Shown here in pieces: positions 1 through 37,630 of a stretch of DNA of 37,894 nucleotides; position 1 is the stretch's first letter; each line of letters begins with the position of its first letter. The notes under the pieces are model-generated. The model did not search any database, had not been told where the DNA came from, and saw nothing but the letters and a program-made list of their open reading frames with translations. The DNA is from a virus (Duplodnaviria > Heunggongvirae > Uroviricota > Caudoviricetes). A program made the position numbers and the translations under genes. The stretch lies in the IMG/VR virus record IMGVR_UViG_2606217109_000004; one strand, given 5' to 3'.

Positions 1-1152
1 TCAATCTGTCAATGCAACACCCCTTTCAATTATCTCTTTCGGTGTTTTGAACTTCAGTGTCTTTCTCGGTCTGTTGTTTAGCTGAGCAGCAACCAGATCT
101 AGTTCATGTTGAGTATATTGGGCAAGACATGTCTTTTTAGGAAAGTACTGCCGAATTAGCCCATTTGTGTTCTCATTTGTTCCCCGCTGCCAAGGACTCT
201 GAGGATCGCAGAAGTAAACTTTAACGCCGGTGCTGACAGTAAATTCTAGATGTCTGGCCAGTTCCATTCCTCTGTCCCATGTCAGTGATTTTCTGAGTTC
301 TGACGGTAAACTCAGGAATTTGTCGGTAAGAGCCTGATTTACTGAGACAGAATCTTTGCCCCTGAGTCTAAGGATGATCGTATAACGTGATTTTCGGTCT
401 ACAAGTGTGGCTATATGAGAGTTTTTTGTACCTGAGACTAAATCGCCCTCCCAATGTCCCAGAGAGCGTCTGTTATCGATATTTCGGGAACGTTCGTGAA
501 TTGGTGTTCCGTTCACTATGTTAATCGTACCTCTTTCGCCTTTGCGGGTATGACGCCTGCCATGGCGAAGGCTATGCGACCGTCGCAGATGCTGTATATT
601 CAGGTGGTGTAGCGCTTCACGGCTACGAAAGTACAGCGTTTTATAAATTGTCTCAGGTGATATTCGCAGCGTTTTTTGACGTGGTTTTGTTCGCCTTAAC
701 CATCCTGATATTTGCTCTGGAGACCATTTCATCTCCAGCTTTTCCAGAACAAGCTTTCGCAATGGTAAATTTTGATCCAGTAAGCACGGTTTTGGCCTTT
801 TCGCCATTCTGTTGGCTCGGTTATTAGCATCAACAGCTTTGTAATAGCGTCTGCCCCGATTACGCTGAACTTCACGTGAGATCGTCGAAGGACTGCGATT
901 CAGCGCAGTAGCTATCGCACGAATGCTCATTTTGGCTGACAAACCAGCTCGTATCTCCTCGCGCTCAGACAGTGTCAGGTGAGCTACAGCCCGCTTACGC
1001 TCATGGGGTTTTATGCCGCCAGTATCCCTTAACATAGTGAAGATCGTTCCGGGTTTTGAACCCAGGATATTCGCTATTTCACTGAAGCCTGTTCCGTTCT
1101 TCCATAGTTCAAAAACAGAGGCTTTTTCCTCTGCTGTAAATGTTCGTCTCAT
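1..1152 (-). CDS. insI: IS30 transposase
   Basis: 383-aa ORF with N-terminal HTH and C-terminal DDE-type region; translation recognised as IS30 InsI. Confidence 0.92.
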   Translation of the reverse strand: MRRTFTAEEKASVFELWKNGTGFSEIANILGSKPGTIFTMLRDTGGIKPHERKRAVAHLTLSEREEIRAGLSAKMSIRAIATALNRSPSTISREVQRNRGRRYYKAVDANNRANRMAKRPKPCLLDQNLPLRKLVLEKLEMKWSPEQISGWLRRTKPRQKTLRISPETIYKTLYFRSREALHHLNIQHLRRSHSLRHGRRHTRKGERGTINIVNGTPIHERSRNIDNRRSLGHWEGDLVSGTKNSHIATLVDRKSRYTIILRLRGKDSVSVNQALTDKFLSLPSELRKSLTWDRGMELARHLEFTVSTGVKVYFCDPQSPWQRGTNENTNGLIRQYFPKKTCLAQYTQHELDLVAAQLNNRPRKTLKFKTPKEIIERGVALTD

Positions 1153-1214
1153 TCAAAAAACCTCCGCAACCCCATGTTTTCACATAACTGTTGCATTGAC
1201 CAATTGAATCTACA
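1..1214 (-). mobile_element. IS30 insertion sequence, nearly full length (cut by window start); terminal inverted repeat ends at about 1214
   Basis: 383-aa ORF matches IS30 transposase; sequence at 1170-1214 is the reverse complement of the IS30 terminal repeat as I remember it (TGTAGATTCAATTGGTCAATGCAACAG...); element abuts cII-homologous DNA at 1215. Confidence 0.9.
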
Positions 1215-1466
1215 AGTGCGTTGCTTAACAAAATCGCAATGCTTGGAACTGAGAAGACAGCGGAAGCTGTGGGAGTTGATAAGTCGCAGATCAGCAGGTG
1301 GAAGAGAGACTGGATTCCCAAGTTCTCAATGCTGCTTGCTGTTCTTGAATGGGGGGTCGTTGACGACGACATGGCTCGATTGGCGCGACAAGTTGCTGCG
1401 ATTCTCACCAATAAAAAACGCCCGGCGGCAACCGAGCGTTCTGAACAAATCCAGATGGAGTTCTGA
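1215..1466 (+). pseudogene. cII: cII transcriptional activator, 5'-truncated by the IS30 insertion
   Basis: Translation ...LLNKIAMLGTEKTAEAVGVDKSQISRWKRDWIPKFSMLLAVLEWGVVDDDMARLARQVAAILTNKKRPAATERSEQIQMEF matches lambda CII from about residue 16 onward; the first ~15 codons are replaced by the IS30 end. Confidence 0.85.
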
Positions 1467-1498
1467 GGTCATTACTGGATCTATCAACAGGAGTCATT

Positions 1499-2398
1499 AT
1501 GACAAATACAGCAAAAATACTCAACTTCGGCAGAGGTAACTTTGCCGGACAGGAGCGTAATGTGGCAGATCTCGATGATGGTTACGCCAGACTATCAAAT
1601 ATGCTGCTTGAGGCTTATTCGGGCGCAGATCTGACCAAGCGACAGTTTAAAGTGCTGCTTGCCATTCTGCGTAAAACCTATGGGTGGAATAAACCAATGG
1701 ACAGAATCACCGATTCTCAACTTAGCGAGATTACAAAGTTACCTGTCAAACGGTGCAATGAAGCCAAGTTAGAACTCGTCAGAATGAATATTATCAAGCA
1801 GCAAGGCGGCATGTTTGGACCAAATAAAAACATCTCAGAATGGTGTATCCCTCAAAACGAGGGAAAATCCCCTAAAACGAGGGATAAAACATCCCTCAAA
1901 TTGGGGGATTGCTATCCCTCAAAACAGGGGGACACAAAAGACACTATTACAAAAGAAAAAAGAAAAGATTATTCGTCCGAGAATTCTGGCGAATCCTCTG
2001 ACCAGCCAGAAAACGACCTTTCTGTGGTGAAACCGGATGCTGCAATTCAGAGCGGCAGCAAGTGGGGGACAGCAGAAGACCTGACCGCCGCAGAGTGGAT
2101 GTTTGACATGGTGAAGACCATCGCGCCATCAGCCAGAAAACCGAATTTTGCAGGGTGGGCTAACGATATCCGCCTGATGCGTGAACGTGACGGACGTAAC
2201 CACCGCGACATGTGCGTGCTGTTCCGCTGGGCATGCCAGGACAACTTCTGGTCCGGTAACGTGCTTAGCCCGGCCAAACTCCGCGACAAGTGGACCCAGC
2301 TCGAAATCAACCGTAACAAGCAACAGGCAGTCGTGACAGCCAGCAAACCAAAACTCGACCTGACAAACACAGACTGGATTTACGGGGTGGATCTATGA
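1499..2398 (+). CDS. O: Replication initiator protein O
   Basis: 299-aa translation matches lambda O; contains the ori iterons internally. Confidence 0.95.
   Translation: MTNTAKILNFGRGNFAGQERNVADLDDGYARLSNMLLEAYSGADLTKRQFKVLLAILRKTYGWNKPMDRITDSQLSEITKLPVKRCNEAKLELVRMNIIKQQGGMFGPNKNISEWCIPQNEGKSPKTRDKTSLKLGDCYPSKQGDTKDTITKEKRKDYSSENSGESSDQPENDLSVVKPDAAIQSGSKWGTAEDLTAAEWMFDMVKTIAPSARKPNFAGWANDIRLMRERDGRNHRDMCVLFRWACQDNFWSGNVLSPAKLRDKWTQLEINRNKQQAVVTASKPKLDLTNTDWIYGVDL
1846..1976. promoter_or_regulatory. Lambda-type origin of replication: four ~19-bp iterons (ATCCCTCAAAACGAGGG-like) followed by an A/T-rich region
   Basis: Four tandem imperfect repeats tccctcaaaacgaggg / tcccctaaaacgaggg / tccctcaaattggggg / tccctcaaaacaggggg, then cacaaaagacactattacaaaagaaaaaagaaaagatta, inside O. 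Confidence 0.8.
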
Positions 2399-3096
2399 AA
2401 AACATCGCCGCACAGATGGTTAACTTTGACCGTGAGCAGATGCGCCGGATCGCCAACAACATGCCGGAACAGTACGACGAAAAGCCGCAGGTACAGCAGG
2501 TAGCGCAGATCATCAACGGTGTGTTCAGCCAGTTACTGGCAACTTTCCCGGCGAGCCTGGCTAACCGTGACCAGAACGAAGTGAACGAAATCCGTCGCCA
2601 GTGGGTTCTGGCTTTTCGGGAAAACGGGATCACCACGATGGAACAGGTTAACGCAGGAATGCGCGTAGCCCGTCGGCAGAATCGACCATTTCTGCCATCA
2701 CCCGGGCAGTTTGTTGCATGGTGCCGGGAAGAAGCATCCGTTATCGCCGGACTGCCAAACGTCAGCGAGCTGGTTGATATGGTTTACGAGTATTGCCGGA
2801 AGCGAGGCCTGTATCCGGATGCGGAGTCTTATCCGTGGAAATCAAACGCGCACTACTGGCTGGTTACCAACCTGTATCAGAACATGCGGGCCAATGCGCT
2901 TACTGATGCGGAATTACGGCGCAAGGCTGCCGATGAACTGACCTGTATGACAGCGCGAATTAACCGTGGTGAGGCGATCCCTGAACCAGTAAAACAACTT
3001 CCTGTCATGGGCAGAAGACCTCTAAATCGTGCACAGGCTCTGGCGAAGATCGCAGAACTCAAAGCTAAGTTCGGACTGAAAGGAGCAAGTGTATGA
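2395..3096 (+). CDS. P: Replication protein P (DnaB helicase loader)
   Basis: 233-aa translation matches lambda P; start overlaps O stop (ATGA). Confidence 0.95.
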   Translation: MKNIAAQMVNFDREQMRRIANNMPEQYDEKPQVQQVAQIINGVFSQLLATFPASLANRDQNEVNEIRRQWVLAFRENGITTMEQVNAGMRVARRQNRPFLPSPGQFVAWCREEASVIAGLPNVSELVDMVYEYCRKRGLYPDAESYPWKSNAHYWLVTNLYQNMRANALTDAELRRKAADELTCMTARINRGEAIPEPVKQLPVMGRRPLNRAQALAKIAELKAKFGLKGASV

Positions 3097-3383
3097 CGGG
3101 CAAAGAGGCAATTATTCATTACCTGGGGACGCATAATAGCTTCTGTGCGCCGGACGTTGCCGCGCTAACAGGCGCAACAGTAACCAGCATAAATCAGGCC
3201 GCGGCTAAAATGGCACGGGCAGGTCTTCTGGTTATCGAAGGTAAGGTCTGGCGAACGGTGTATTACCGGTTTGCTACCAAGGAAGAACGGGAAGGAAAGA
3301 TGAGCACGAACCTGATTTTTAAGGAGTGTCGCCAGAGTGCCGCGATGAAACGGGTATTGGCGGTATATGGAGTTAAAAGATGA
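3093..3383 (+). CDS. ren: Ren protein
   Basis: 96-aa translation matches lambda Ren; overlaps P stop. Confidence 0.9.
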   Translation: MTGKEAIIHYLGTHNSFCAPDVAALTGATVTSINQAAAKMARAGLLVIEGKVWRTVYYRFATKEEREGKMSTNLIFKECRQSAAMKRVLAVYGVKR

Positions 3384-3456
3384 CCATCTACATCACTGAG
3401 CTAATAACAGGCCTGCTGGTAATCGCAGGCCTTTTTATTTGGGGGAGAGGGAAGTC

Positions 3457-3897: not shown

Positions 3898-4421
3898 CTA
3901 TCAAATCAAATACGCCAGCACACGACAAGGACTGCTGGCAAACGCCGCTTTGGCTTTTTGATGCACTGGATATTGAGTTTGGATTCTGGCTGGATTCGGC
4001 AGCGAGCGACAAAAATGCTCTGTGCGCTCACTGGTTAACTGAGGCCGACGACGCGCTAAATTCTGAGTGGATAAGCCACGGTGCAATCTGGAATAACCCA
4101 CCGTACAGCAATATCAGGCCGTGGGTGGAAAAAGCCGCTGAGCAGTGCATACAACAGCGACAGACGGTAGTGATGCTTGTGCCAGAGGATATGTCTGTCG
4201 GATGGTTCAGCAAGGCTCTGGAGAGTATTGACGAAGTTCGCATCATCACTGATGGACGGATTAATTTTATCGAACCATCGACAGGGCTGGAGAAGAAGGG
4301 AAACAGCAAAGGTTCCATGCTGCTGATTTGGCGACCGTTCATCAGTCCTCGACGGATGTTTACTACCGTATCCAAAGCGGCATTGATGGCGATCGGGCAG
4401 GGCGTCAGGAGGGCTGCATGA
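3894..4421 (+). CDS. Phage-type DNA N6-adenine methyltransferase (Dam-like), no visible partner restriction enzyme
   Basis: ~175-aa ORF with catalytic NPPY motif (IWNNPPYSN) and a CWQTP N-terminal motif typical of phage Dam-family methyltransferases; start overlaps ninB stop and stop overlaps ninE start. Confidence 0.8.
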
Positions 4422-4594
4422 GACGACAGCGGCGAAGTTTCACCGACATCATCTGCGAAAACTGCAAATACCTTCCAACGAAACGCTCCAGAAATAAACG
4501 CAAGCCAATCCCAAAAGAATCTGACGTAAAAACCTTCAACTACACGGCTCACCTGTGGGATATCCGGTGGCTAAGACATCGTGCGAGGAAATGA
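4418..4594 (+). CDS. ninE: NinE
   Basis: Translation [58 protein letters not shown] matches lambda NinE. Confidence 0.8.
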
Positions 4595-4596
4595 CA

Positions 4597-4938
4597 ATGG
4601 ATTATTCACAGTTAAGTGATTTTGAAATTAACCGAATGGTAGGAGACATAATTTTTAAAGGCCTTTGGGCATGTAAGCCTGAAACATCAGGGAATAACAC
4701 CAACAAATGGTATTACGGAAATGCCGATGTAAGTCTTGAGCCATTAAACCCTTTGCCTGACTACTGCAATGATCCGAGCGCTTCATGGCCGATTATTGAG
4801 AAATACAGGATTTCTATCTTAGACCAGTTAACTGAATGGTGTGTGGATGCAAAAGGCGTAAGCCCAATATTTGATACCAGACCTCTCCGCGCCGCCATGA
4901 TTGTCTTTCTCCTGATGCAGGAGGCCAATAATGCTTAG
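4597..4938 (+). CDS. Hypothetical nin-region protein (small phage protein, family not identified)
   Basis: ~113-aa ORF directly after ninE with AGGAAA ribosome-binding site; alternative start at 4555 or 4591. Confidence 0.5.
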
Positions 4939-5144: not shown

Positions 5145-5507
5145 GTGAATACCTACAGCATCACATTACCCTGGCCTCCGAGCAATAATCGCTATTACCG
5201 CCATAATCGCGGGCGCACGCACGTCAGCGCAGAGGGGCAGGCATACCGCGATAACGTCGCCCGAATCATTAAAAACGCAATGCTGGATATCGGCCTGGCT
5301 ATGCCTGTGAAAATCCGCATTGAGTGCCACATGCCGGATCGCCGTCGCCGTGACCTGGATAATCTGCAAAAAGCCGCTTTTGACGCACTCACTAAAGCAG
5401 GTTTCTGGCTGGATGATGCTCAGGTCGTTGATTACCGCGTTGTGAAGATGCCTGTTACCAAAGGTGGGAGGCTGGAACTGACCATCACCGAAATGGGGAA
5501 TGAATGA
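5145..5507 (+). CDS. rusA: RusA Holliday-junction resolvase
   Basis: 120-aa translation matches E. coli DLP12 RusA ([18 protein letters not shown]...); apparent GTG start. Confidence 0.9.
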
Positions 5508-5644
5508 TGTTTGAGTTTAATATGGCAGAACTTCTTCGCCACCGCTGGGGGCGTCTGCGCTTATATCGTTTCCCCGGTTCTGTTTTGACCGATTACCGAA
5601 TACTGAAGAATTACGCCAAAACCCTGACAGGAGCAGGAGTATGA
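5504..5644 (+). CDS. ylcG: Small protein YlcG-like
   Basis: 46-codon [49 protein letters not shown] overlapping rusA stop; position matches DLP12 ylcG between rusA and quuD. Confidence 0.5.
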
Positions 5645-5729
5645 AGTCAGAGATAACAATCAACTAATACTGTTTTGTTGATTTTTGCTTGTAATTGGCG
5701 TTCTGGTCTGATTTTTGTGGAGTAAGTTG

Positions 5730-6113
5730 ATGCGTGATATTCAGATGGTTCTTGAGCGTTGGGGAGCGTGGGCGGCTAATAATCATGAAGATGTGACCTG
5801 GTCGTCCATTGCCGCCGGTTTTAAGGGATTAATTACTTCAAAAGTAAAATCTCGCCCGCAATGTTGTGACGATGACGCGATGATTATTTGCGGGTGCATG
5901 GCCCGTCTGAAAAAGAACAACAGCGATTTGCACGATTTATTAGTAGATTATTATGTAGTCGGTATGACATTCATGTCACTGGCAGGTAAGCATTGCTGCT
6001 CTGATGGTTATATCGGGAAAAGGTTACAGAAGGCTGAGGGCATAATTGAAGGGATGTTAATGGCATTAGATATCCGGTTAGAGATGGATATCGTTGTTAA
6101 TAACTCTAATTAA
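5730..6113 (+). CDS. quuD: Late-gene antiterminator Q (DLP12 QuuD-type)
   Basis: Translation [34 protein letters not shown]... matches E. coli QuuD (127 aa). Confidence 0.85.
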
Positions 6114-26760: not shown

Positions 26761-30162
<3,402 letters not shown>

Positions 30163-30228
30163 ATTTTATAACCCAGAACGGGCGTCAGAAATGACGCCTT
30201 TTTTATTGCAGAAAAGCGAGAGGTAATT

Positions 30229-30828
30229 ATGCGTAAACTTTATGCCGCCATTTTGTCCGCAGCCATTTGTCTGGCCGTATCCGGTGCGCCTGCATGGGCG
30301 TCTGAACATCAGTCCACGCTGAGCGCGGGGTATCTTCATGCCTTGACGAACGTTCCCGGCAGCGATGATCTTAACGGGATTAACGTGAAATACCGTTATG
30401 AGTTTACGGACACACTGGGGCTGGTGACGTCATTCAGCTATGCAGGAGACAAGAATCGCCAGCTTACCCGTTACAGCGATACCCGCTGGCATGAAGATTC
30501 AGTGCGTAACCGCTGGTTCAGCGTGATGGCGGGGCCGTCTGTGCGCGTGAATGAATGGTTCAGCGCGTATGCGATGGCGGGTATGGCTTACAGCCGTGTT
30601 TCGACTTTCTCCGGGAATTATCTCCGCGTAACTGACAACAAGGGGAAAACGCACGACGTGCTGACCGGAAGTGATGACGGTCGCCACAGCAACACGTCTC
30701 TGGCGTGGGGGGCTGGCGTGCAGTTTAACCCGACCGAATCCGTGGCCATTGATATTGCTTATGAAGGCTCCGGCAGTGGTGACTGGCGCACTGACGGTTT
30801 CATCGTGGGTGTCGGTTATAAATTCTGA
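30229..30828 (+). CDS. lom: Lom outer-membrane protein (Ail/Lom family beta-barrel)
   Basis: 199-aa ORF with signal peptide ([24 protein letters not shown]) and C-terminal ...GVGYKF; matches lambda Lom. Confidence 0.9.
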
Positions 30829-30886
30829 TTAGCCAGGTAACACAGTGTTATGACAGCCCGCCGGTTCAGGCGGGCTTTTTTGTGGG

Positions 30887-33800
30887 GTGAATATGGCAGT
30901 AAAGATTTCAGGTGTACTGAAAGACGGCACAGGAAAACCGGTACAGAACTGCACAATCCAGCTGAAAGCAAAACGTAACAGCACCACGGTGGTGGTGAAC
31001 ACGCTGGCCTCAGAAAATCCGGATGAAGCCGGGCGTTACAGCATGGACGTTGAGTACGGGCAGTACAGCGTTATTCTGTTGGTGGAGGGATTCCCGCCGT
31101 CACATGCCGGGACCATCACCGTGTATGAAGATTCCCGACCCGGTACGCTGAATGATTTTCTCGGTGCCATGACGGAGGATGATGCCCGTCCTGAGGCACT
31201 GCGCCGTTTTGAACTGATGGTGGAAGAGGTGGCGCGTAACGCGTCCGCGGTGGCACAGAACACGGCAGCCGCGAAGAAGTCAGCCAGCGATGCCGGCACA
31301 TCAGCCCGTGAGGCGGCAACCCATGCGACTGATGCTGCAGGCTCAGCAAGCGCAGCCAGCACGTCAGCCGGACAGGCCGCGTCGTCGGCTCAGTCAGCAT
31401 CTTCCAGCGCAGGAACGGCATCAACAAAGGCCAGTGAAGCATCGAAAAGTGCTGCTGCTGCAGAGTCCTCAAAAAGCGCGGCAGCTACCAGTGCCGCTGC
31501 GGCGAAAACGTCAGAAACGAATGCGGCAGCGTCACAACAATCAGCAGCCACTTCTGCATCCGCCGCGACCACGAAGGCGTCAGAAGCAGCCACCTCAGCC
31601 CGGGATGCGGCGGCCTCAAAAGAGGCAGCGAAATCATCAGAAACGAACGCATCCTCGAGCGCCAGTAGTGCCGCTTCCTCGGCAACGGCGGCAGGCAATT
31701 CCGCGAAGGCGGCAAAGACGTCTGAGACAAACGCCAGGTCTTCTGAAACGGCAGCGGAACAGAGTGCCTCAGCTGCGGCAGGCTCAAAAACAGCGGCTGC
31801 GTCGTCTGCCAGTGCAGCGTCAACAAGTGCCGGGCAGGCCTCAGCCAGTGCCACCGCCGCCGGAAAATCGGCAGAAAGCGCCGCATCGTCTGCTTCAACA
31901 GCCACAACGAAGGCTGGCGAAGCCACTGAACAGGCCAGCGCAGCAGCGAGGTCTGCTTCCGCAGCGAAGACATCCGAAACGAACGCGAAAGCGTCGGAAA
32001 CCAGCGCAGAATCCTCAAAAACGGCTGCCGCATCGTCAGCCAGTTCGGCGGCGTCATCGGCATCATCGGCGTCTGCTTCAAAAGATGAGGCGACCAGACA
32101 AGCGTCAGCAGCGAAGAGCAGCGCCACGACGGCATCCACGAAGGCGACAGAGGCTGCTGGCAGTGCGACGGCGGCAGCTCAGAGCAAAAGTACGGCGGAA
32201 TCCGCGGCAACGCGCGCCGAGACAGCAGCTAAACGGGCAGAGGATATTGCATCCGCCGTGGCGCTTGAGGATGCAAGTACGACGAAAAAGGGGATAGTAC
32301 AGCTCAGCAGTGCGACCAACAGTACGTCTGAAACGCTGGCGGCAACGCCAAAGGCAGTAAAATCAGCCTATGACAATGCAGAGAAACGTCTGCAGAAAGA
32401 CCAGAACGGCGCTGATATACCCGATAAGGGATGCTTCCTGAACAACATTAACGCGGTCAGTAAAACAGACTTTGCTGATAAGCGTGGTATGCGTTATGTG
32501 CGGGTTAACGCTCCTGCAGGTGCAACATCTGGAAAATATTACCCTGTTGTTGTTATGCGTTCTGCTGGCTCAGTAAGCGAACTGGCATCAAGAGTCATTA
32601 TCACCACGGCAACGCGAACCGCAGGCGATCCGATGAATAACTGCGAGTTTAACGGATTTGTTATGCCTGGTGGCTGGACTGACAGGGGGCGTTATGCTTA
32701 TGGAATGTTCTGGCAATATCAAAACAATGAACGAGCCATTCACTCAATAATGATGAGTAATAAGGGCGATGATTTGCGCTCTGTGTTCTATGTTGATGGC
32801 GCTGCTTTCCCTGTTTTTGCGTTTATTGAAGATGGCCTGTCAATATCCGCACCTGGTGCTGATCTCGTTGTTAATGATACGACCTATAAGTTTGGGGCAA
32901 CAAATCCGGCGACTGAATGTATCGCGGCGGACGTTATCCTTGATTTTAAGAGTGGGCGTGGTTTTTATGAGTCTCATTCGTTAATCGTTAACGATAACTT
33001 GTCGTGCAAAAAACTTTTTGCCACAGACGAAATTGTAGCGCGTGGTGGTAATCAGATTCGAATGATAGGTGGGGAGTATGGGGCATTATGGCGTAATGAT
33101 GGCGCTAAAACTTACCTGCTGCTTACCAATCAAGGTGATGCTTATGGTGGCTGGAATACATTAAGACCGTTTGCTATTGATAACGCAACCGGCGAACTGG
33201 TTATTGGAACCAAACTGTCCGCAAGTCTGAACGGTAATGCATTAACAGCAACAAAGCTGCAAACGCCAAGACGGGTTTCTGGTGTTGAGTTTGATGGTTC
33301 CAAAGATATTACTTTAACCGCCGCGCATGTGGCTGCTTTTGCCAGAAGGGCAACGGATACATATGCCGATGCGGATGGGGGCGTTCCCTGGAATGCCGAA
33401 TCAGGCGCTTATAAGGTCACCCGCTCTGGCGACAGCTATATTCTGGTTAACTTCTATACCGGAGTCGGAAGTTGCCGGACCTTGCAGATGAAGGCGCATT
33501 ACAGAAATGGTGGTCTGTTCTACCGTTCTTCAAGAGACGGTTATGGTTTTGAGGAAGACTGGGCAGAAGTTTATACCTCGAAAAATCTTCCACCAGAAAG
33601 CTACCCAGTCGGTGCACCAATCCCGTGGCCATCAGATACCGTTCCGTCTGGTTATGCCCTGATGCAGGGGCAGACTTTTGACAAATCTGCTTACCCGAAA
33701 CTTGCAGTTGCTTATCCGTCAGGCGTGATCCCTGATATGCGTGGCTGGACGATTAAGGGCAAACCTGCCAGTGGTCGGGCCGTATTGTCTCAGGAACAGG

Positions 33801-34291
33801 ACGGCATTAAATCGCATACCCACAGCGCCAGCGCATCCAGTACGGATTTGGGGACGAAAACCACATCGTCGTTTGATTACGGCACTAAATCCACGAATAA
33901 CACTGGTGCGCATACCCATAGTTTAAGTGGCAGCACGAATGCAGCTGGTAATCACAGCCATAGAGATGGCCGTCGATTTAACCCCAGTGTTTTTAAAGAT
34001 ACTTATCAATATGGTTATACAAGCTCAGGTCAAAATACCTGGGGTGTACAAGGCTCAGTAGGTATGTCTACGGGGTGGTTAGCTAATACCAGTACAGATG
34101 GTAATCATAGCCACTCACTGTCCGGCACAGCAGCATCTGCAGGTGCACACGCGCATACTGTCGGTATTGGTGCTCATACGCACTCCGTTGCGATTGGTTC
34201 ACATGGACACACCATCACCGTTAACGCTGCTGGTAACGCGGAAAACACCGTCAAAAACATCGCATTTAACTATATTGTGAGGCTTGCATAA
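30887..34291 (+). CDS. stf: Side tail fibre protein Stf, enlarged mosaic form
   Basis: N-terminus ([29 protein letters not shown]...) and C-terminal His-rich receptor-binding region match lambda Stf; central part is a long Ala/Ser/Thr-rich repeat tract plus a divergent lower-GC domain. Confidence 0.9.
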
Positions 34292-34872
34292 TGGCATTCA
34301 GAATGAGTGAACAACCACGGACCATAAAAATTTATAATCTGCTGGCCGGAACTAATGAATTTATTGGTGAAGGTGACGCATATATTCCGCCTCATACAGG
34401 TCTGCCAGCAAACAGTACCGATATTGCACCGCCAGATATTCCGGCTGGCTTTGTGGCTGTTTTCAACAGTGATGAGGCATCGTGGCATCTCGTTGAAGAT
34501 CATCGGGGAAAAACCGTCTATGACGTGGCTTCCGGCGACGCGTTATTTATTTCTGAACTTGGCTCGTTACCGGAAAATGTCACCTGGTTATCGCCGGAAG
34601 GGGAATATCAGAAGTGGAACGGCACAGCCTGGGTGAAGGATACGGAAGCAGAAAAACTGTTCCGGATCCGGGAGGCGGAAGAAACAAAAAACAACCTGAT
34701 GCAGGTAGCCAGTGAGCATATTGCGCCACTTCAGGATGCTGCAGATCTGGAAATCGCAACGGAGGAAGAAAACTCGTTGCTGGAATCCTGGAAAAAGTAT
34801 CGGGTGTTGCTGAACCGTGTTAATACAACAACTGCACCGGATATTGAATGGCCAGTAGCACCTATAGGGTAA
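34291..34872 (+). CDS. tfa: Tail fibre assembly protein Tfa
   Basis: 193-aa translation matches lambda Tfa ([37 protein letters not shown]...). Confidence 0.9.
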
Positions 34873-34965
34873 ATTCGTAATGATTACCTAAATACGTTAT
34901 TCTTTTGTTCAAAAAGTGATTTTGCTATAGGTAAGGAGTATGTTCTTGGATTAAGAATAAAAAAT

Positions 34966-34988
34966 CGCCATGAAAGAGCTTCATGGCG
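34966..34988 (-). terminator. Rho-independent terminator for a leftward transcript coming from the AT-rich spacer
   Basis: Perfect 9-bp stem CGCCATGAA / TTCATGGCG with 5-nt loop; on the minus strand it is followed by ATTTTTTATT. Confidence 0.5.
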
Positions 34989-35731
34989 AGTACATAAACG
35001 TACAAAATGTGATGAAAGTAGAGTGGCGTAAGCCACTATATTAAGATATGACAATAGCGAAGAAAAGTAAATAACATTTTATGGACGTTTAATTGTTAAT
35101 TATAAAAACTAGAGTGCCCGATATTGTTTATCTTGCTTTAAAATAATGTACTCAAACCAAATTTTTGAGCTAAAAGCTCAAATAATATAAATGCAATGAT
35201 AATGTTTAATAAGACAATTAGCTTGCTTTGTATTTTCATTTCGGAATACTGTTAAGTAACTTTGATGACCCTAACAATAGATCGGAATTTTCTTAGAGTC
35301 AATGGTCACTGTTTTTGCTTGCAAAGCAAATGTTTTGGTGGTTATAAGTTGTCTTAATATAGTCACGCATGCAACTTGTTCCATGCGGAGATTAAAGATT
35401 GGAATATAACGCGAAGATGGAATTAAATTACATTTGCAATAATCAATTTATTATTACTCAATAATTACCGATATTATTATTGTAAATTAATCATTAGAGT
35501 GCAAAAAGAAATGTAACGGCAAAATAAGAGGACGATAGCTGAGAAAAAAGCGTGCTTTCCCAATCTGGGGCAAATCACGTCTGAATGACACCTGAAAACA
35601 GGTGGTAGCCTCAAGAAGGCTTGGAATATTCTTCTTTAATGTTATGTAATTCATTGATTTTTCGTGTACGATTTTAAGACATTTATTCCAAGAAAAATTT
35701 TTAACTCTTTGATTTTTAGACTCTGTATCAT

Positions 35732-35793
35732 CGGTCTCGAAAACCGGAGTGGGGGCAACTCTACCGGGGGTTCAAATCCCCCTCTCTCCGCCA
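35732..35793 (+). other. 3' fragment (anticodon loop to CCA) of a tRNA-Ser(CGA) gene: candidate att core / prophage boundary
   Basis: CGGTCTCGAAAACCGGAGTGGGGGCAACTCTACCGGGGGTTCAAATCCCCCTCTCTCCGCCA equals the 3' ~62 nt of E. coli serU-type tRNA-Ser as I remember it (one mismatch); the 5' half of the tRNA is absent and replaced by AT-rich DNA. Confidence 0.75.
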
Positions 35794-36377
35794 CTTTATC
35801 AATGACTTATCTCCCGACTTCCCGCCTTGCTTTTCCTAAACAGAACAATCGTAGAATATTCTTGAAGGGTTAGATCGTCACTGTTTTCTGTTCGATACTG
35901 TGACATTCAGCACTTGATTCGCTATGGATCTGACAGGAAGGTTTTGAGCGAAAATTTGCAGTTATTCAGTCGTTTTCTTATCGGTCACCATTATTCTTTT
36001 AGACATTGATCCTACAAAGCTGCCGCAAAGTTGGTGGTGGGAACTGAAGTTGCGTAGAGAAGGGGTCAATACCCGGAGGCAAACATGGGCTGGCAAAAGT
36101 GTAGCGGTATTAGGCGCAGCTATTTAGCCTAGTTATGTTTTATGAAAACTTGATATCATATAAGTGTCTTACTTATTGGCTGTAAATAAGTTTTTCCTAA
36201 GGAATTGTTTCTTGAGTATCATTTGTAACTGTAACGGAATTTATAATCCTTTGCTTTATTGTTACGGTATTTTTTATCACACCCTATTTTTTATGTGGTT
36301 TTTTATACTGAAGTTTGGCAAAGTGAACTTTATATGCATATACTTCATCCTGGTTTCAGTTAAGTTGGGTGGATGAT

Positions 36378-37121
36378 ATGGCAACTACATGTTCAGTTAT
36401 ATTGATTTTGGAGTCCTTTGATGTTTATTTCGGAAAAGAGAGTGTGTTTCTGGAGAGAGGTTCATCTGTACTTGTCGACTCTAGCTCTAGAGATTTTTTC
36501 CTGACATATCCTGAAAGAGTGATAGTGGCGGATTTTGGCGCTGAGTTTATTAGTCGCTATTTGAAAGCTAATAACTTAAGGGATATTTCTGATTGTAGGG
36601 AATATCCATCTTATTTAAAAATAAACTTTGCTGACTTCAGTTTAATTAAAGGATTAATTAGTTGGGCTAATCACTGTGCTGAATACATAGAAATTTTTGA
36701 TGAGTCTATTGCTTTTACATGTCTCTCTGCATTTTCTTCTGAAAAACAATTTGGAGTATTTCTGTTTGAATGTTTGAAAAGCACAGGGGCTAAAGTTAAA
36801 ACGATTATTCATACGGATTTATCTGCACCATGGCGTCTTAAGGATATATCATCAAGATTATATCTCAGCGAAAGTTTACTAAAGAGGAAATTGAAAGAAG
36901 AGGGGGTATCATTCAGTAAGATCATACTTGATGAGAGGATGCAAATGGCTGAATATTTACTCAGCACTCGTTGTTATCCTATTAGTAAAGTAGCTAAGGT
37001 CTGTGGTTATGCCAGTGTCTCATACTTTACTTATGTATTTAGACGTTATTTTGGTGTTTCTCCAAGTCAATACTCTCAGAGCAGTTCAGAAAGTAAAATT
37101 CTTACTCACCAGGGAATCTGA
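36378..37121 (+). CDS. AraC/XylS-family transcriptional regulator (AppY/YdeO/GadX-like subgroup), AT-rich acquired gene
   Basis: 247-aa ORF with C-terminal double-HTH AraC signature (...SKVAKVCGYASVSYFTYVFRRYFGVSPSQY); GGTGGA ribosome-binding site before ATG at 36378; GC well below the phage genes. Confidence 0.8.
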   Translation: MATTCSVILILESFDVYFGKESVFLERGSSVLVDSSSRDFFLTYPERVIVADFGAEFISRYLKANNLRDISDCREYPSYLKINFADFSLIKGLISWANHCAEYIEIFDESIAFTCLSAFSSEKQFGVFLFECLKSTGAKVKTIIHTDLSAPWRLKDISSRLYLSESLLKRKLKEEGVSFSKIILDERMQMAEYLLSTRCYPISKVAKVCGYASVSYFTYVFRRYFGVSPSQYSQSSSESKILTHQGI

Positions 37122-37630
37122 TCATTGTTCTTGCCCCCTTATTTCCAGACAGGGGGTGTATCTTAAGTTAACGTTACCCGCTGACGTCGATATTCTCGCG
37201 GAGAGCGATAACCCAGCGCACTGTGCGGATGGTTTTCATTGTAATGTTCGATCGCCACTGCAAGATTATGCAATGCCGTTCTTACATTCGGTTTCGGCAT
37301 GAACGCGGTGTAGTCTTCCTTCATCGTTTTCACGAACCTTTCTGCCATTCCATTACTCTGAGGACTGCTGATTGCCGTTGTGCAGGGCTCCAGATTCAAC
37401 TCTCTGGCGAACTGCCATGTTTCATGCGCTCTATACGCTGAACCGTTATCTGTCAGCCACTGGATGGACTGTTCCGGTACTTTATCGCCAAAGCGTTTTT
37501 CTATCGCTCCTAACATGACATCCTGCACTGTCGCTTTATCGTAACCTCCCGTGCTTGCGGCCCAGTCTATGGCTTCACGATCGCAACAGTCCAGGGCGAA
37601 CGTAACACGCAGTTTTGAATCGCCACGGGT
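37122..37630 (-). mobile_element. IS3-family (IS2-like) element fragment: terminal inverted repeat plus 3' part of the orfB transposase; 5' part missing
   Basis: Minus-strand frame open from about 37630 to stop at 37163 encodes ...[38 protein letters not shown]...WLTDNGSAY...[11 protein letters not shown]...[19 protein letters not shown] (second D and E of the DDE triad); IS2-like end TTGCCCCCTTATTTCCAGACA at 37128-37150. Confidence 0.7.

Follow-up and report, generated by a model that had tools for sequence, protein, structure and literature searches.

Gene content of the stf locus

The window, that is, the whole 37,894-nt stretch of DNA analysed here, contains the late-operon gene order of lambdoid phages, J - lom - stf - tfa, with the tfa start overlapping the stf stop codon:

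26764-30162, J, first gene of the series
30229-30828, lom (Ail_Lom, E=5e-119)
30855..30886, plus strand, terminator-like hairpin and T-run after lom, followed by GGGGTG (putative function)
30887..34291, plus strand, CDS of stf, a StfR-type side tail fibre (intact ORF, 1134 aa from GTG)
34291..34872, plus strand, tfa, tail fibre assembly chaperone (Pfam Caudo_TAP, E=7.6e-42)

The 1134-aa stf ORF is present and intact, as first annotated, although its true start is probably not GTG 30887 but ATG 30893 (MAVKISG, 1132 aa), the start in lambda, in RefSeq homologues and in the lambda StfN chain of PDB 9e7m. In the hairpin 3' of lom, 7 of the 8 stem pairs are G-C and the tail is TTTTTTG, and the GGGGTG that follows is likely to be the ribosome-binding site, here putative, serving ATG 30893.

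At the DNA level, stf is 99.1% identical, without gaps, to the stfR genes of more than 100 complete Escherichia coli genomes, and it is near-identical to stf of the isolated phages PhiR34_1 and Kati. In relatives that have the same right end, this region adjoins ybhB-bioA, the lambda attachment locus. The gene is, with little doubt, an ordinary one: the StfR-type side tail fibre, common and previously described, of a lambda-like E. coli prophage. The initial annotation described an enlarged fibre with an insertion; the arrangement is instead that of StfR in the Rac prophage of K-12, found with at least 80% of the gene covered in 1231 of 5426 complete genomes. The short form of lambda is the minority, its junction being detected in 97 genomes, many of them laboratory lysogens.

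Domain architecture of the side tail fibre

Searches against Pfam and the PDB, together with allele comparison, divide the protein into the following segments, from the N-terminus to the C-terminus:

30893..31174, plus strand, N-terminal tail-attachment (collar) domain, aa 3-96 (PDB 9e7m)
31196..32287, plus strand, predicted coiled-coil rod of 52 heptads, aa 104-467 (heptad table, AlphaFold2, lambda homologue)
32288..32421, plus strand, conserved linker common to the Mu tail fibre S, aa 468-511 (5' recombination junction)
32422..33286, plus strand, central shaft module B1, aa 512-800, GC3 0.39 (allele comparison, Pfam, PDB)
32879-33178, plus strand, T4 gp34-like trimerisation domain within B1, aa 665-764 (Pfam Gp34_trimer, E=1.2e-27)
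33287..33569, plus strand, central shaft module B2, aa 801-894 (Mu S-like, weakly gp37_C-like)
33570..33930, plus strand, Collar domain and proximal half of a gp37-like needle, aa 895-1014, with HxH motifs 1-2
33931..34106, plus strand, variable tip cassette, aa 1015-1074, containing HxH motif 3 (allele comparison)
34107..34288, plus strand, returning half of the needle and C-terminus, with HxH motifs 4-7, conserved

The N-terminal domain matches the lambda tail fibre protein of PDB 9e7m (aa 3-96, E=2e-51) and the Pfam family phage_tail_N (PF08400, lambda StfN fold; aa 3-136, E=1.6e-71). A cryo-EM study of Ur-lambda assigns this domain a role in tail docking and describes Stf as a trimer on virions that speeds adsorption (PMC12617516). 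Across the linker, aa 442-523 match residues 90-172 of Mu S (PDB 5yvq/8ju3).

The domain search proposed in the initial annotation for residues ~505-900 was informative for part of that range. Besides Gp34_trimer, the C-terminal region of T4 gp34 (PDB 4uxe/5nxf) matches aa 708-779 (E~1e-11), Mu S residues 322-415 (PDB 8ju3) match aa 815-909 in B2, and B2 also yields a Pfam gp37_C match (E=1.2e-5). A Pfam search of aa 497-700 alone returned no family even at E<=1, and in PHROG, B1 matches tail-fibre families or families without an assigned function. An AlphaFold2 monomer model of aa 497-905, built from a 10-sequence alignment, had a mean pLDDT of 41.7, a low value that is expected because a single chain of an intertwined trimer was modelled. 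Given this poor model and a Foldseek search of it against the PDB with 0 matches at E<=0.001, no fold was assigned to the central module; for aa ~524-665, the putative shaft fold and role are read from tail-fibre family membership only.

The distal end is clearer. It contains a Pfam Collar match (E=4.7e-11), and aa 904-1134 align with T4 gp37 in PDB 2xgf (E=1.4e-85). The seven HxH motifs lie at H977, 1009, 1023, 1074, 1088, 1097 and 1106, in agreement with the His-rich C-terminal domain described initially, which had, however, been taken as conserved throughout and so had included the variable tip cassette. The segment 34107..34288 is 92-100% identical in all alleles examined and aligns with the gp37 C-terminus.

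The Ala/Ser/Thr tract as a predicted coiled-coil rod

Windows with at least 60% A+S+T cover aa 115-466 (31229-32284), and aa 121-465 consist of 38% A, 25% S and 12% T. The tract comprises 52 uninterrupted heptads (aa 104-467) with the pattern S-A-[S/T]-x-A-x-[T/S], in which Ala occupies the two core positions (90% of positions 5 and 67% of positions 2), and Ser 71% of positions 1. The autocorrelation of Ala is highest at lags 7/14/21/28 (0.32-0.43), and the observed value was reached in 0 of 2000 shuffles. AlphaFold2 run on the single sequence predicts helices at aa 100-390 and 398-483 (mean pLDDT 69.9), and residues 102-393 of the lambda homologue have been modelled as a trimeric coiled coil (PMC12617516). 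The tract is best interpreted as a structural, probably trimeric coiled-coil rod and not as unstable DNA. At 0.148 nm per residue, such a rod would be ~54 nm long, ~15 heptads (~16 nm) longer than that of lambda.

The low-complexity repeat reported initially holds at the protein level, where the composition bears it out, and fails at the DNA level. The longest exact direct repeat in stf is 12 nt, the internal repeats extend over at most 37 nt with 69-88% identity, and Tandem Repeats Finder detects only a 22-nt, period-9 array at 32049-32070. Thus, the tract is periodic as protein, in heptads, but not repetitive as DNA.

The initial annotation also expected the tract to vary in length or to be prone to assembly error. 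On a reading of this kind, the tract would be repetitive and unstable as DNA, whether a contingency-type locus of variable length or an artefact of assembly. Shorter in-register variants do exist, 1-nt frameshifts occur in or near the tract in mEp332 (gene nt 558) and PhiR30_1 (nt 1408), and many proteins from draft assemblies are incomplete, the contig ending within stf. Nevertheless, we consider this reading highly improbable: the longest exact repeat is far shorter than a read, and the whole gene aligns without gaps to more than 100 complete genomes. Of 60 rows taken from the whole ranking, nearly all have a tract of 1128 nt free of indels, and 3635 of the 5426 genomes (~2/3 of E. coli) contain it at >=80% coverage. 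A better explanation of draft fragmentation is that several prophages reside in one genome and have the conserved 5' 1.5 kb in common; the whole stf matches at up to 16 places per genome (median 3), and the tract at up to 8.

Within the rod-encoding tract, shorter forms are rare, discrete and differ by whole heptads, lacking either 15 (-315 nt, in lambda) or 16 (-336 nt, in L016 and O104:H4-type alleles). The latter deletion can be related to an internal repeat, D1:

31625..31650, plus strand, D1, left copy, 26 nt
31961..31986, plus strand, D1, right copy, 26 nt, 88% identical to the left copy

The spacing of the copies, 336 nt, equals 16 heptads, and in L016 (CP148269) they are fused, with exactly 336 nt lost in frame. 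Tract length changes only rarely and, in at least one case, through recombination between diverged 26-nt internal repeats. In a search with the 36-heptad junction, pieces 336 nt apart are joined, which makes the count at >=80% coverage (1394 genomes) unspecific; only single-piece matches are reliable, and these made up 9 of the 10 matches listed, with 9 records at >=99% identity. A candidate longer form in H125 (+132 nt) proved to be a duplication of the linker motif downstream, the tract itself being unchanged.

Open alternative frames across the tract

Both alternative frames noted initially are indeed open across the tract:

31290..32297, plus strand, open alternative frame of 335 codons, composition by-product
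31390-32139, minus strand, open alternative frame of 249 aa, composition by-product
31485-32210, minus strand, open alternative frame of 241 aa, composition by-product

That these frames are overlapping genes could be argued from three alternative frames that lack stops over 247-356 codons, from a -3 frame run longer than 99.7% of codon shuffles, and from the annotation of such ORFs in lambda (orf206b) and phi458 (Orf45). However, in four of the five alternative frames, codon shuffles produce stop-free runs of comparable length, and the excess in the -3 frame arises because T|A is avoided at codon junctions (7 observed against 16.4 expected). Among alleles, ~70-80% of substitutions affect third positions of stf codons and the lengths of the alternative ORFs range from 189 to 370 codons (48-290 in lambda), and the predicted products are Arg/Pro/Gln-rich or Ala/Asp/Phe-rich low-complexity strings. 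The probability that any of them is a gene is, in our judgement, very small; the alternative frames are by-products of composition.

Mosaic structure and base composition

Comparison of alleles places junctions at 32374/32421, ~33286, 33569, ~33930 and ~34106. Homology to mEp460, PhiR68_2 and Res13 stops at gene nt 1488 (32374) and that to PhiR29_1 at nt 1535 (32421); a further allele breakpoint lies at nt 2683 (33569). The boundaries of the lower-GC segment seen initially, ~32400 and ~33580, lie within ~25 nt of the breakpoints 32374/32421 and 33569.

The modules differ in their distribution. B1 is 99-100% identical in K-12 StfR, ~60% identical in Turner and PhiR30_1, and unrelated in mEp460, PhiR29_1 and lambda, whereas B2 is at least 91% identical in Turner and PhiR30_1 and replaced in mEp460 and PhiR29_1. 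At 95-100% identity, the central module is present in 1316 of the 5426 genomes. The segment 33570..33930 shares 93-97% identity with mEp460, PhiR68_2 and PhiR29_1, and the tfa DNA has 94-96% identity with that of lambda, of Rac and of all phage alleles, whatever their tip type. Three central types (1, 1' and 2) and two tip types (a and b) can be distinguished, and all six combinations were sampled:

central type 1 with tip a, window
central type 1 with tip b, K-12
central type 1' with tip a, PhiR30_1
central type 1' with tip b, Turner
central type 2 with tip a, mEp460
central type 2-like with tip b, PhiR29_1

The presence of all six requires recombination, which the initial annotation had proposed. 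The stf gene is a recombinational mosaic in which central type and tip type combine independently. Recombination between lambda and Rac within stf/tfa has been demonstrated experimentally (PMC3945230), and an engineered lambda-P2 Stf chimera works (bioRxiv 10.1101/2022.09.30.509847).

Over aa 505-900 the GC content is 0.47, against 0.62 in the tract, in line with the drop first reported. The high value of the tract is due to amino-acid composition, with GC2 at 0.79 and GC3 only 0.52-0.53. At third positions, the low-GC segment (0.39) differs from the upstream J, lom and stf-N (0.65; p=9e-17) but not from the downstream region (aa 801-1134 and tfa, 0.44; p=0.14), and the claim that it is unlike both flanks did not survive. 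There is therefore a persistent step-down in GC3 to the end of tfa and not an island: GC3 goes from ~0.65 upstream to 0.28-0.48 from 32422 onward, the tip cassette being the lowest in stf (0.28). This step fits a scenario in which the distal half of stf and tfa would originate in a gene pool that low-GC phages also draw on; it suggests different gene pools, although GC3 differences do not prove them.

A relic DNA-invertase crossover site was considered at the Mu S-like junction near 32426. The crossover core AAACCNNGGTTT has no match in stf or tfa, and no recombinase ORF was found downstream in the window, where an AraC-family gene and an IS remnant are all that is present; the candidate was rejected. 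In some relatives, pin adjoins tfa.

The tip cassette as the probable receptor determinant

The tip cassette is 99-100% identical to those of mEp460 and PhiR30_1, only 41-68% identical to those of K-12 StfR, 2H10, Turner and PhiR29_1, and present in 1136 of the 5426 genomes. Its protein sequence is 88.7% identical to a tail fibre of P896, a T4-sized phage of 170 kb. In T4, specificity maps to the gp37-type tip (PMC6957217, PMC9659904) and the gp37 needle holds seven iron sites (PMC6957217); in the T4/lambda family of receptor-binding proteins, as described by Magaziner and Salmond, a variable tip of 30-70 aa lies between conserved flanks (PMC9659904). The cassette of the window aligns opposite the gp37 tip, after H929/H931. 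The OmpC/LPS-contacting residues of T4 that follow H929/H931 are absent here, and the 2xgf alignment fails between HxH 3 and HxH 4, that is, over aa 1026-1073 within the cassette. The receptor determinant is probably this cassette (33931-34106) and not the central module. A literature search for receptor data on the PhiR and mEp phage collection found none.

The initial annotation had instead placed receptor specificity in the lower-GC centre (~32400-33580), viewed as an inserted binding domain whose swapping changes the host. The centre is flanked by real recombination junctions and replaced in other alleles, AlphaFold2 gives a moderately confident beta-rich domain at residues ~536-686 (pLDDT 50-82), domains related to the segment occur in lateral fibres of unrelated phages, and a secondary binding function, for example, of a glycan, is possible. 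Yet every recognisable match in the centre is to a shaft or trimerisation module (T4 gp34 C-terminal, Mu S shaft, PHROG tail-fibre families), the fibre already has a complete collar-needle-tip end of the gp37 type, which is the specificity site in T4 (PMC6957217, PMC9659904), and exchange of the tip does not depend on the centre. Moreover, the central segment is a replacement of the 178-aa centre of lambda and not an insertion, and K-12 Rac has the same arrangement. A receptor-binding centre is accordingly rated as unlikely.

With the tip cassette as the preferred determinant, the fibre can be pictured as a homotrimer, the trimeric state being carried over from homologues. Residues 3-96 would form the collar that docks on the tail, and residues ~104-467 the 52-heptad Ala/Ser coiled-coil rod, followed by the conserved linker of the Mu S type. 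The distal half would consist of beta-structured shaft modules common to T4 gp34, T4 gp37 and Mu S, ending in a collar and needle like those of gp37, with seven putative metal-binding HxH motifs and the variable tip; Tfa, encoded next to stf, would assist folding. We infer trimerisation, metal binding and rod length from homologues.

Implications for annotation and engineering

This allele and its architecture have been documented before, as has the exchange of tail-fibre modules, and the discovery value of the locus is small; its practical use lies in annotation and engineering. For annotation, the Ala/Ser tract is to be treated as a predicted 52-heptad coiled-coil rod and not as low-complexity or unstable sequence, and any ORF annotated in another frame of the tract is spurious. 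For engineering, the natural junctions listed above are splice points for chimeric fibres, and the cassette to type or swap for receptor choice is probably the tip, of ~176 nt, rather than the large block at the centre.

Rod length falls into discrete classes: most E. coli prophages have 52 heptads, and lambda, like a small number of others, has 36-37. It is conceivable, though we would not expect it, that these classes are non-neutral and set the reach of the fibre to the thickness of the O-antigen or capsule or, as a second possibility, that B1 carries a secondary glycan site. If so, new rod lengths would arise in heptad register through recombination of diverged 26-nt repeats, and the glycan site would make the fibre a two-receptor adhesin.

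Comparison with known systems

Contingency loci combine near-identical tandem DNA repeats with frequent length polymorphism; the stf tract has neither. The Mu G, P1 C and e14 P segments are switched by invertases, whereas the window is without an invertible segment, crossover site or invertase. With Mu S (PDB 5YVQ, 8JU3) and T4 gp34 (PDB 4UXE, 5NXF), the window stf has only local modules in common. The similarity to the T4 gp37 tip (PDB 2XGF) is more extensive and includes the collar and the needle, with seven HxH motifs at matching positions, but the critical tip residues of T4 are replaced by an unrelated, longer segment (48 aa against ~34 aa), the T4 chaperone is gp38 and not of the Tfa type, and the rest of the window Stf is unrelated to gp37.

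Stf of Ur-lambda (774 aa) matches at both ends, as first noted, with 80% identity over aa 3-354 and 72% over aa 906-1134 of the window protein. The two fibres have in common the collar, a rod in the same register, the conserved linker, a gp37-like HxH needle and Tfa. They differ in the rod (37 heptads in lambda, -315 nt, against 52), in the centre (an unrelated 178 aa in lambda against ~550 aa), in the number of HxH motifs (eight against seven) and in the tips, which are 46.7% identical. The lambda Stf receptor, OmpC, is not transferable to the window stf, whose tip is unlike that of lambda or T4.

The closest relatives are StfR-type fibres. StfR of K-12 Rac (b1372, 1120 aa) has the same architecture and modules, seven HxH motifs and tfa downstream, with gapless nucleotide identity of 97.9% over nt 1-3045 and 96.8% identity over nt 3220-3405. 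It differs only in the tip cassette (176 nt, aa 1015-1074; 55-64% identity in bins), where HxH 3 and 4 are 36 residues apart against 48 in the window. The Rac prophage lies elsewhere than the window prophage, at ttcC, and its pinR is absent from the window. Finally, PhiR34_1 (PV340559; 99.0% DNA identity), Kati (PP925833; 98.5%) and E. coli stfR (99.1%) align with the window gene over its full length without gaps; the ~31 point differences are mostly synonymous, and 18 fall in the coiled-coil tract.

Gene and genomic context

The side tail fibre gene stf belongs to the end of the late operon in a lambda-like prophage, arranged as follows:

26764-30162: J
30229-30828: lom, between J and stf
30887-34291 (+): stf, a GTG-initiated ORF of 1134 codons
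33931-34106: swapped tip cassette of stf, containing the stretch from the third to the fourth HxH motif, from allele comparison
34291-34872: tfa, the 3' neighbour of stf

Because GTG 30887 falls inside a GGGGTG ribosome-binding site, the true start is most likely 6 nt downstream, giving a product of 1132 aa. Lambda Stf, the RefSeq homologues and the solved chain of lambda StfN begin with MAVKISG, which here corresponds to ATG 30893, with GGGGTG in front of it. Residue numbers follow the 1134-aa ORF, and gene nucleotides are counted from 30887. The lom/stf gap (30855-30895) contains a strong terminator-like hairpin (8 pairs, 7 of them G-C, followed by a T-run) directly 5' of this ribosome-binding site and ATG 30893, and a second, similar hairpin lies 3' of J (30180-30199).

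In relatives with the same tfa-proximal right end, this region is adjoined by ybhB-bioA, the lambda attachment locus. Downstream of tfa come a stretch of low GC (~34900-36400; GC 0.28-0.44) with no ORF of at least 80 aa, then an AraC-family regulator gene (36369-37121) and, on the minus strand, an integrase-core (rve) transposase remnant (37163-37528). The same layout adjoins ybhB-bioA in 162 complete E. coli genomes, and the region 34873-37528 looks like prophage-end cargo.

A common StfR-type allele

Genes named stfR by RefSeq in many complete E. coli genomes align with stf over the whole gene without gaps at 99.1% identity, and two phage side tail fibre genes, those of PhiR34_1 and Kati, are 99.0% and 98.5% identical to it. 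K-12 Rac stfR differs only between nt 3045 and 3220, matching without gaps across nt 1-3045 (97.9%) and again across nt 3220-3405 (96.8%). The gene is therefore the familiar StfR-type allele rather than an unusually enlarged version of the lambda gene. Although the initial annotation had called it enlarged, a match spanning at least 80% of the gene is present in 1231 of 5426 genomes, whereas the Ur-lambda form (774 aa) is the minority one, its tract junction being found in 97 genomes, many of them laboratory lysogens. Identity of at least 99% to the whole gene was found in 125 of 5486 matching records, and the gene occurs at a median of 3 places per genome (maximum, 16).

The segment 31337-31786 (gene nt 450-900) is just 91-94% identical to K-12 stfR, compared with 97-100% for the rest of the 5' half. 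The best genome match differs from stf at 31 points, 18 of them inside the Ala/Ser/Thr-rich tract. This pattern hints at patchy gene conversion between co-resident prophages. In public records, Stf fragments and fusions (for example, P0026, P0027, P0031, P0034 and P0093) carry names such as 'short-chain fatty acid transporter', 'terminase large subunit' and 'ATP-dependent Clp protease proteolytic subunit 1', which look like annotation errors or gene-call fusions.

The Ala/Ser/Thr-rich tract is a predicted coiled-coil rod

The tract (38% A, 25% S and 12% T over aa 121-465) has the composition originally noticed. From residue 104, it consists of 52 uninterrupted heptads with the consensus S-A-[S/T]-x-A-x-[T/S], where Ala occupies 90% of positions 5 and 67% of positions 2, and Ser 71% of positions 1. 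Ala autocorrelation peaks at lags 7, 14, 21 and 28, the observed value being matched by none of 2000 shuffles. The single-sequence AlphaFold2 model is a near-continuous helix (aa 100-390 and 398-483; mean pLDDT 69.9), and the homologous residues 102-393 of Ur-lambda Stf form the trimeric proximal coiled coil of the side fibre in a published model built from cryo-EM, cryo-ET and AlphaFold3 (PMC12617516). Taken together, the heptads, their periodicity, the predicted helix and the homologue model identify the tract as a putative structural rod. With the textbook rise of 0.148 nm per residue, the rod would be roughly 54 nm long.

Contrary to the original reading, the tract is not repetitive DNA. 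Tandem Repeats Finder returned nothing in it but one 22-nt array of period 9, exact direct repeats reach at most 12 nt anywhere in the gene, and the internal repeat families are at most 37 nt long and 69-88% identical, with all tract-family spacings in multiples of 21 nt. The GC content of the tract (0.62) derives from the second codon position (GC2 0.79), GC3 being just 0.52-0.53.

That the tract would probably vary in length and be prone to misassembly was an overstatement. At least 80% of the tract is present in 3635 of 5426 genomes, nearly all full-coverage matches span exactly 1128 nt (60 rows sampled over the entire E. coli ranking), and seven directly aligned alleles show no gaps across nt 1-1488. 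Length variants are rare and discrete: the lambda tract is shorter by exactly 315 nt, or 15 heptads, with the register kept, and a further variant, an allele of CP148269, O104:H4 strain 2009EL-2071 and other records, is 336 nt (16 heptads) shorter, with a junction inside fused copies of D1, a 26-nt internal repeat (31625, 31961). Strain EC5 has its coiled coil fused in register, at gene nt 848, to an unrelated S74-peptidase/pyocin-knob fibre, forming a continuous 1259-aa ORF. Draft assemblies contain many partial Stf proteins on contigs of about 1-2 kb; this fragmentation would be better explained by the several co-resident prophages that share the conserved 5' 1.5 kb.

Several records carry altered or broken alleles. 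The 1259-aa ORF of NZ_CP060969 (3147-6926), comprising the Stf N-terminus, a shortened coiled coil and the pyocin-knob/S74-peptidase fibre (junction at nt 848), appears in RefSeq as a pseudogene fragment and a separate CDS, and its truncation point recurs in about 5 of 60 sampled records. The CP148269 allele is decayed, combining the 16-heptad deletion with a 340-nt frameshifting one; between the stf remnant and tfa, it has a 296-aa ORF (5192-6082) with a Macro domain (Pfam E=8.6e-19) and HxH-like strings in the C-terminal part. Single-base deletions split stf in mEp332 (nt 558) and PhiR30_1 (nt 1408, within an A5G4 run, and nt 3159). They resemble the stf frameshift of laboratory lambda PaPa and could reflect either real side-fibre loss during propagation or sequencing errors. 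In draft assemblies, stf is often broken, with many partial entries on contigs of 1.1-2.1 kb.

The open alternative frames across the tract are real but are a by-product of composition. When the codons of the tract were shuffled, open runs of similar length arose in all but one of the five alternative frames; in the remaining one, -3, the excess is explained by avoidance of T followed by A at codon junctions (7 observed vs 16.4 expected). That these frames are genes is very unlikely in view of the shuffles, of allele substitutions lying mostly at third positions of stf codons (for example, 15/18, 26/36 and 53/70) and of alternative ORF lengths varying from 189 to 370 codons among alleles. Antisense ORFs are annotated on the tract in phi458 (Orf45, 4004-4741, minus strand) and lambda J02459 (orf206b); these are almost certainly misannotated composition-driven open frames, not genes.

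Central module and mosaic junctions

Upstream of the centre, GC3 is 0.67 (J), 0.61 (lom), 0.59 (stf N-terminus) and 0.53 (tract); it then falls to 0.39 over aa 512-800 and stays lower from there on, at 0.48 (aa 801-1014), 0.28 (tip), 0.45 (C-terminal end) and 0.44 (tfa). The centre (aa 512-800 in this test) differs strongly from upstream sequence (p=9e-17) but not from downstream (p=0.14), so the pattern is a step down, not an island. The low-GC insert proposed initially has boundaries that match real breakpoints, but the lower GC3 persists downstream. Homology to mEp460, PhiR68_2 and Res13 ends at gene nt 1488 (32374) and that to PhiR29_1 at nt 1535 (32421), resuming at nt 2684 (33570). The sliding comparison splits the centre further near nt 2400 (33286), before which Turner and PhiR30_1 show ~60% identity and after which at least 91%. 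The 5' junction lies within a conserved linker, containing NGADIPDKG, that recurs in Mu tail fibre S.

Pfam detected the T4 gp34 C-terminal trimerisation domain at aa 665-764 (E=1.2e-27), together with a weak gp37_C match, and PDB sequence search matched aa 708-779 to T4 gp34 and two stretches, aa 442-523 and aa 815-909, to Mu S. PHROG matches of the centre were to families of tail fibres or of unknown function, and tblastn found pieces of it in fibres of T4-like, P2-like, Felix O1-like, Seuratvirus and other phages. The AlphaFold2 monomer model of the centre was poor (pLDDT 41.7), and a fold search with it gave no significant match. Of 5426 genomes, 1316, K-12 among them, carry the centre at 95-100% identity. 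Judging by these matches, we read it as shaft, not adhesin.

The variable tip

Residues 904-1134 match the T4 gp37 tip crystal-structure sequence (E=1.4e-85) and are closer to it than to lambda (72%). By sequence, the likeness extends to seven HxH motifs, compared with seven iron sites in the T4 needle (PMC6957217). The T4 alignment breaks down from HxH 3 (H1023/H1025, equivalent to T4 H929/H931) to HxH 4 (H1074), the stretch that holds receptor-contact residues in T4 gp37 (PMC6957217) and forms a 30-70-aa variable cassette in the T4/lambda receptor-binding-protein family (PMC9659904). The cassette is 41-68% identical to those of K-12 StfR, 2H10, Turner and PhiR29_1, 99-100% identical to those of mEp460 and PhiR30_1, and, at the protein level, 88.7% identical to a tail fibre of the 170-kb phage P896; it was found in 1136 of 5426 genomes. 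Allele comparison points to the tip cassette, at the T4 receptor-contact position, as the real variable element and probable receptor determinant of the gene, rather than the central segment to which specificity had been assigned. Identity of tfa is 94-96% over all alleles, irrespective of tip.

Recombination and comparison with known fibres

Central types 1, 1' and 2 and tip types a and b were sampled in all six combinations, a distribution that, as judged from the alleles, requires recombination of centre and tip. No invertase or crossover site was found in this window, so homologous exchange at conserved linkers is the simplest route. The earlier observation is largely borne out: its recombination reading was right in kind, although mistaken about the nature of the insert, the part that sets specificity and the stability of the tract. 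The stf of this window offers little new, its gene type and mosaicism being already known. In agreement with the recombination reading, lambda x Rac recombinants within stf/tfa have been obtained experimentally (PMC3945230, which also cites classical papers on horizontal transfer of tail-fibre segments), and engineered lambda-P2 Stf chimeras are functional (bioRxiv 10.1101/2022.09.30.509847). Everything found here fits StfR, an established gene type, and an evolutionary pattern described before.
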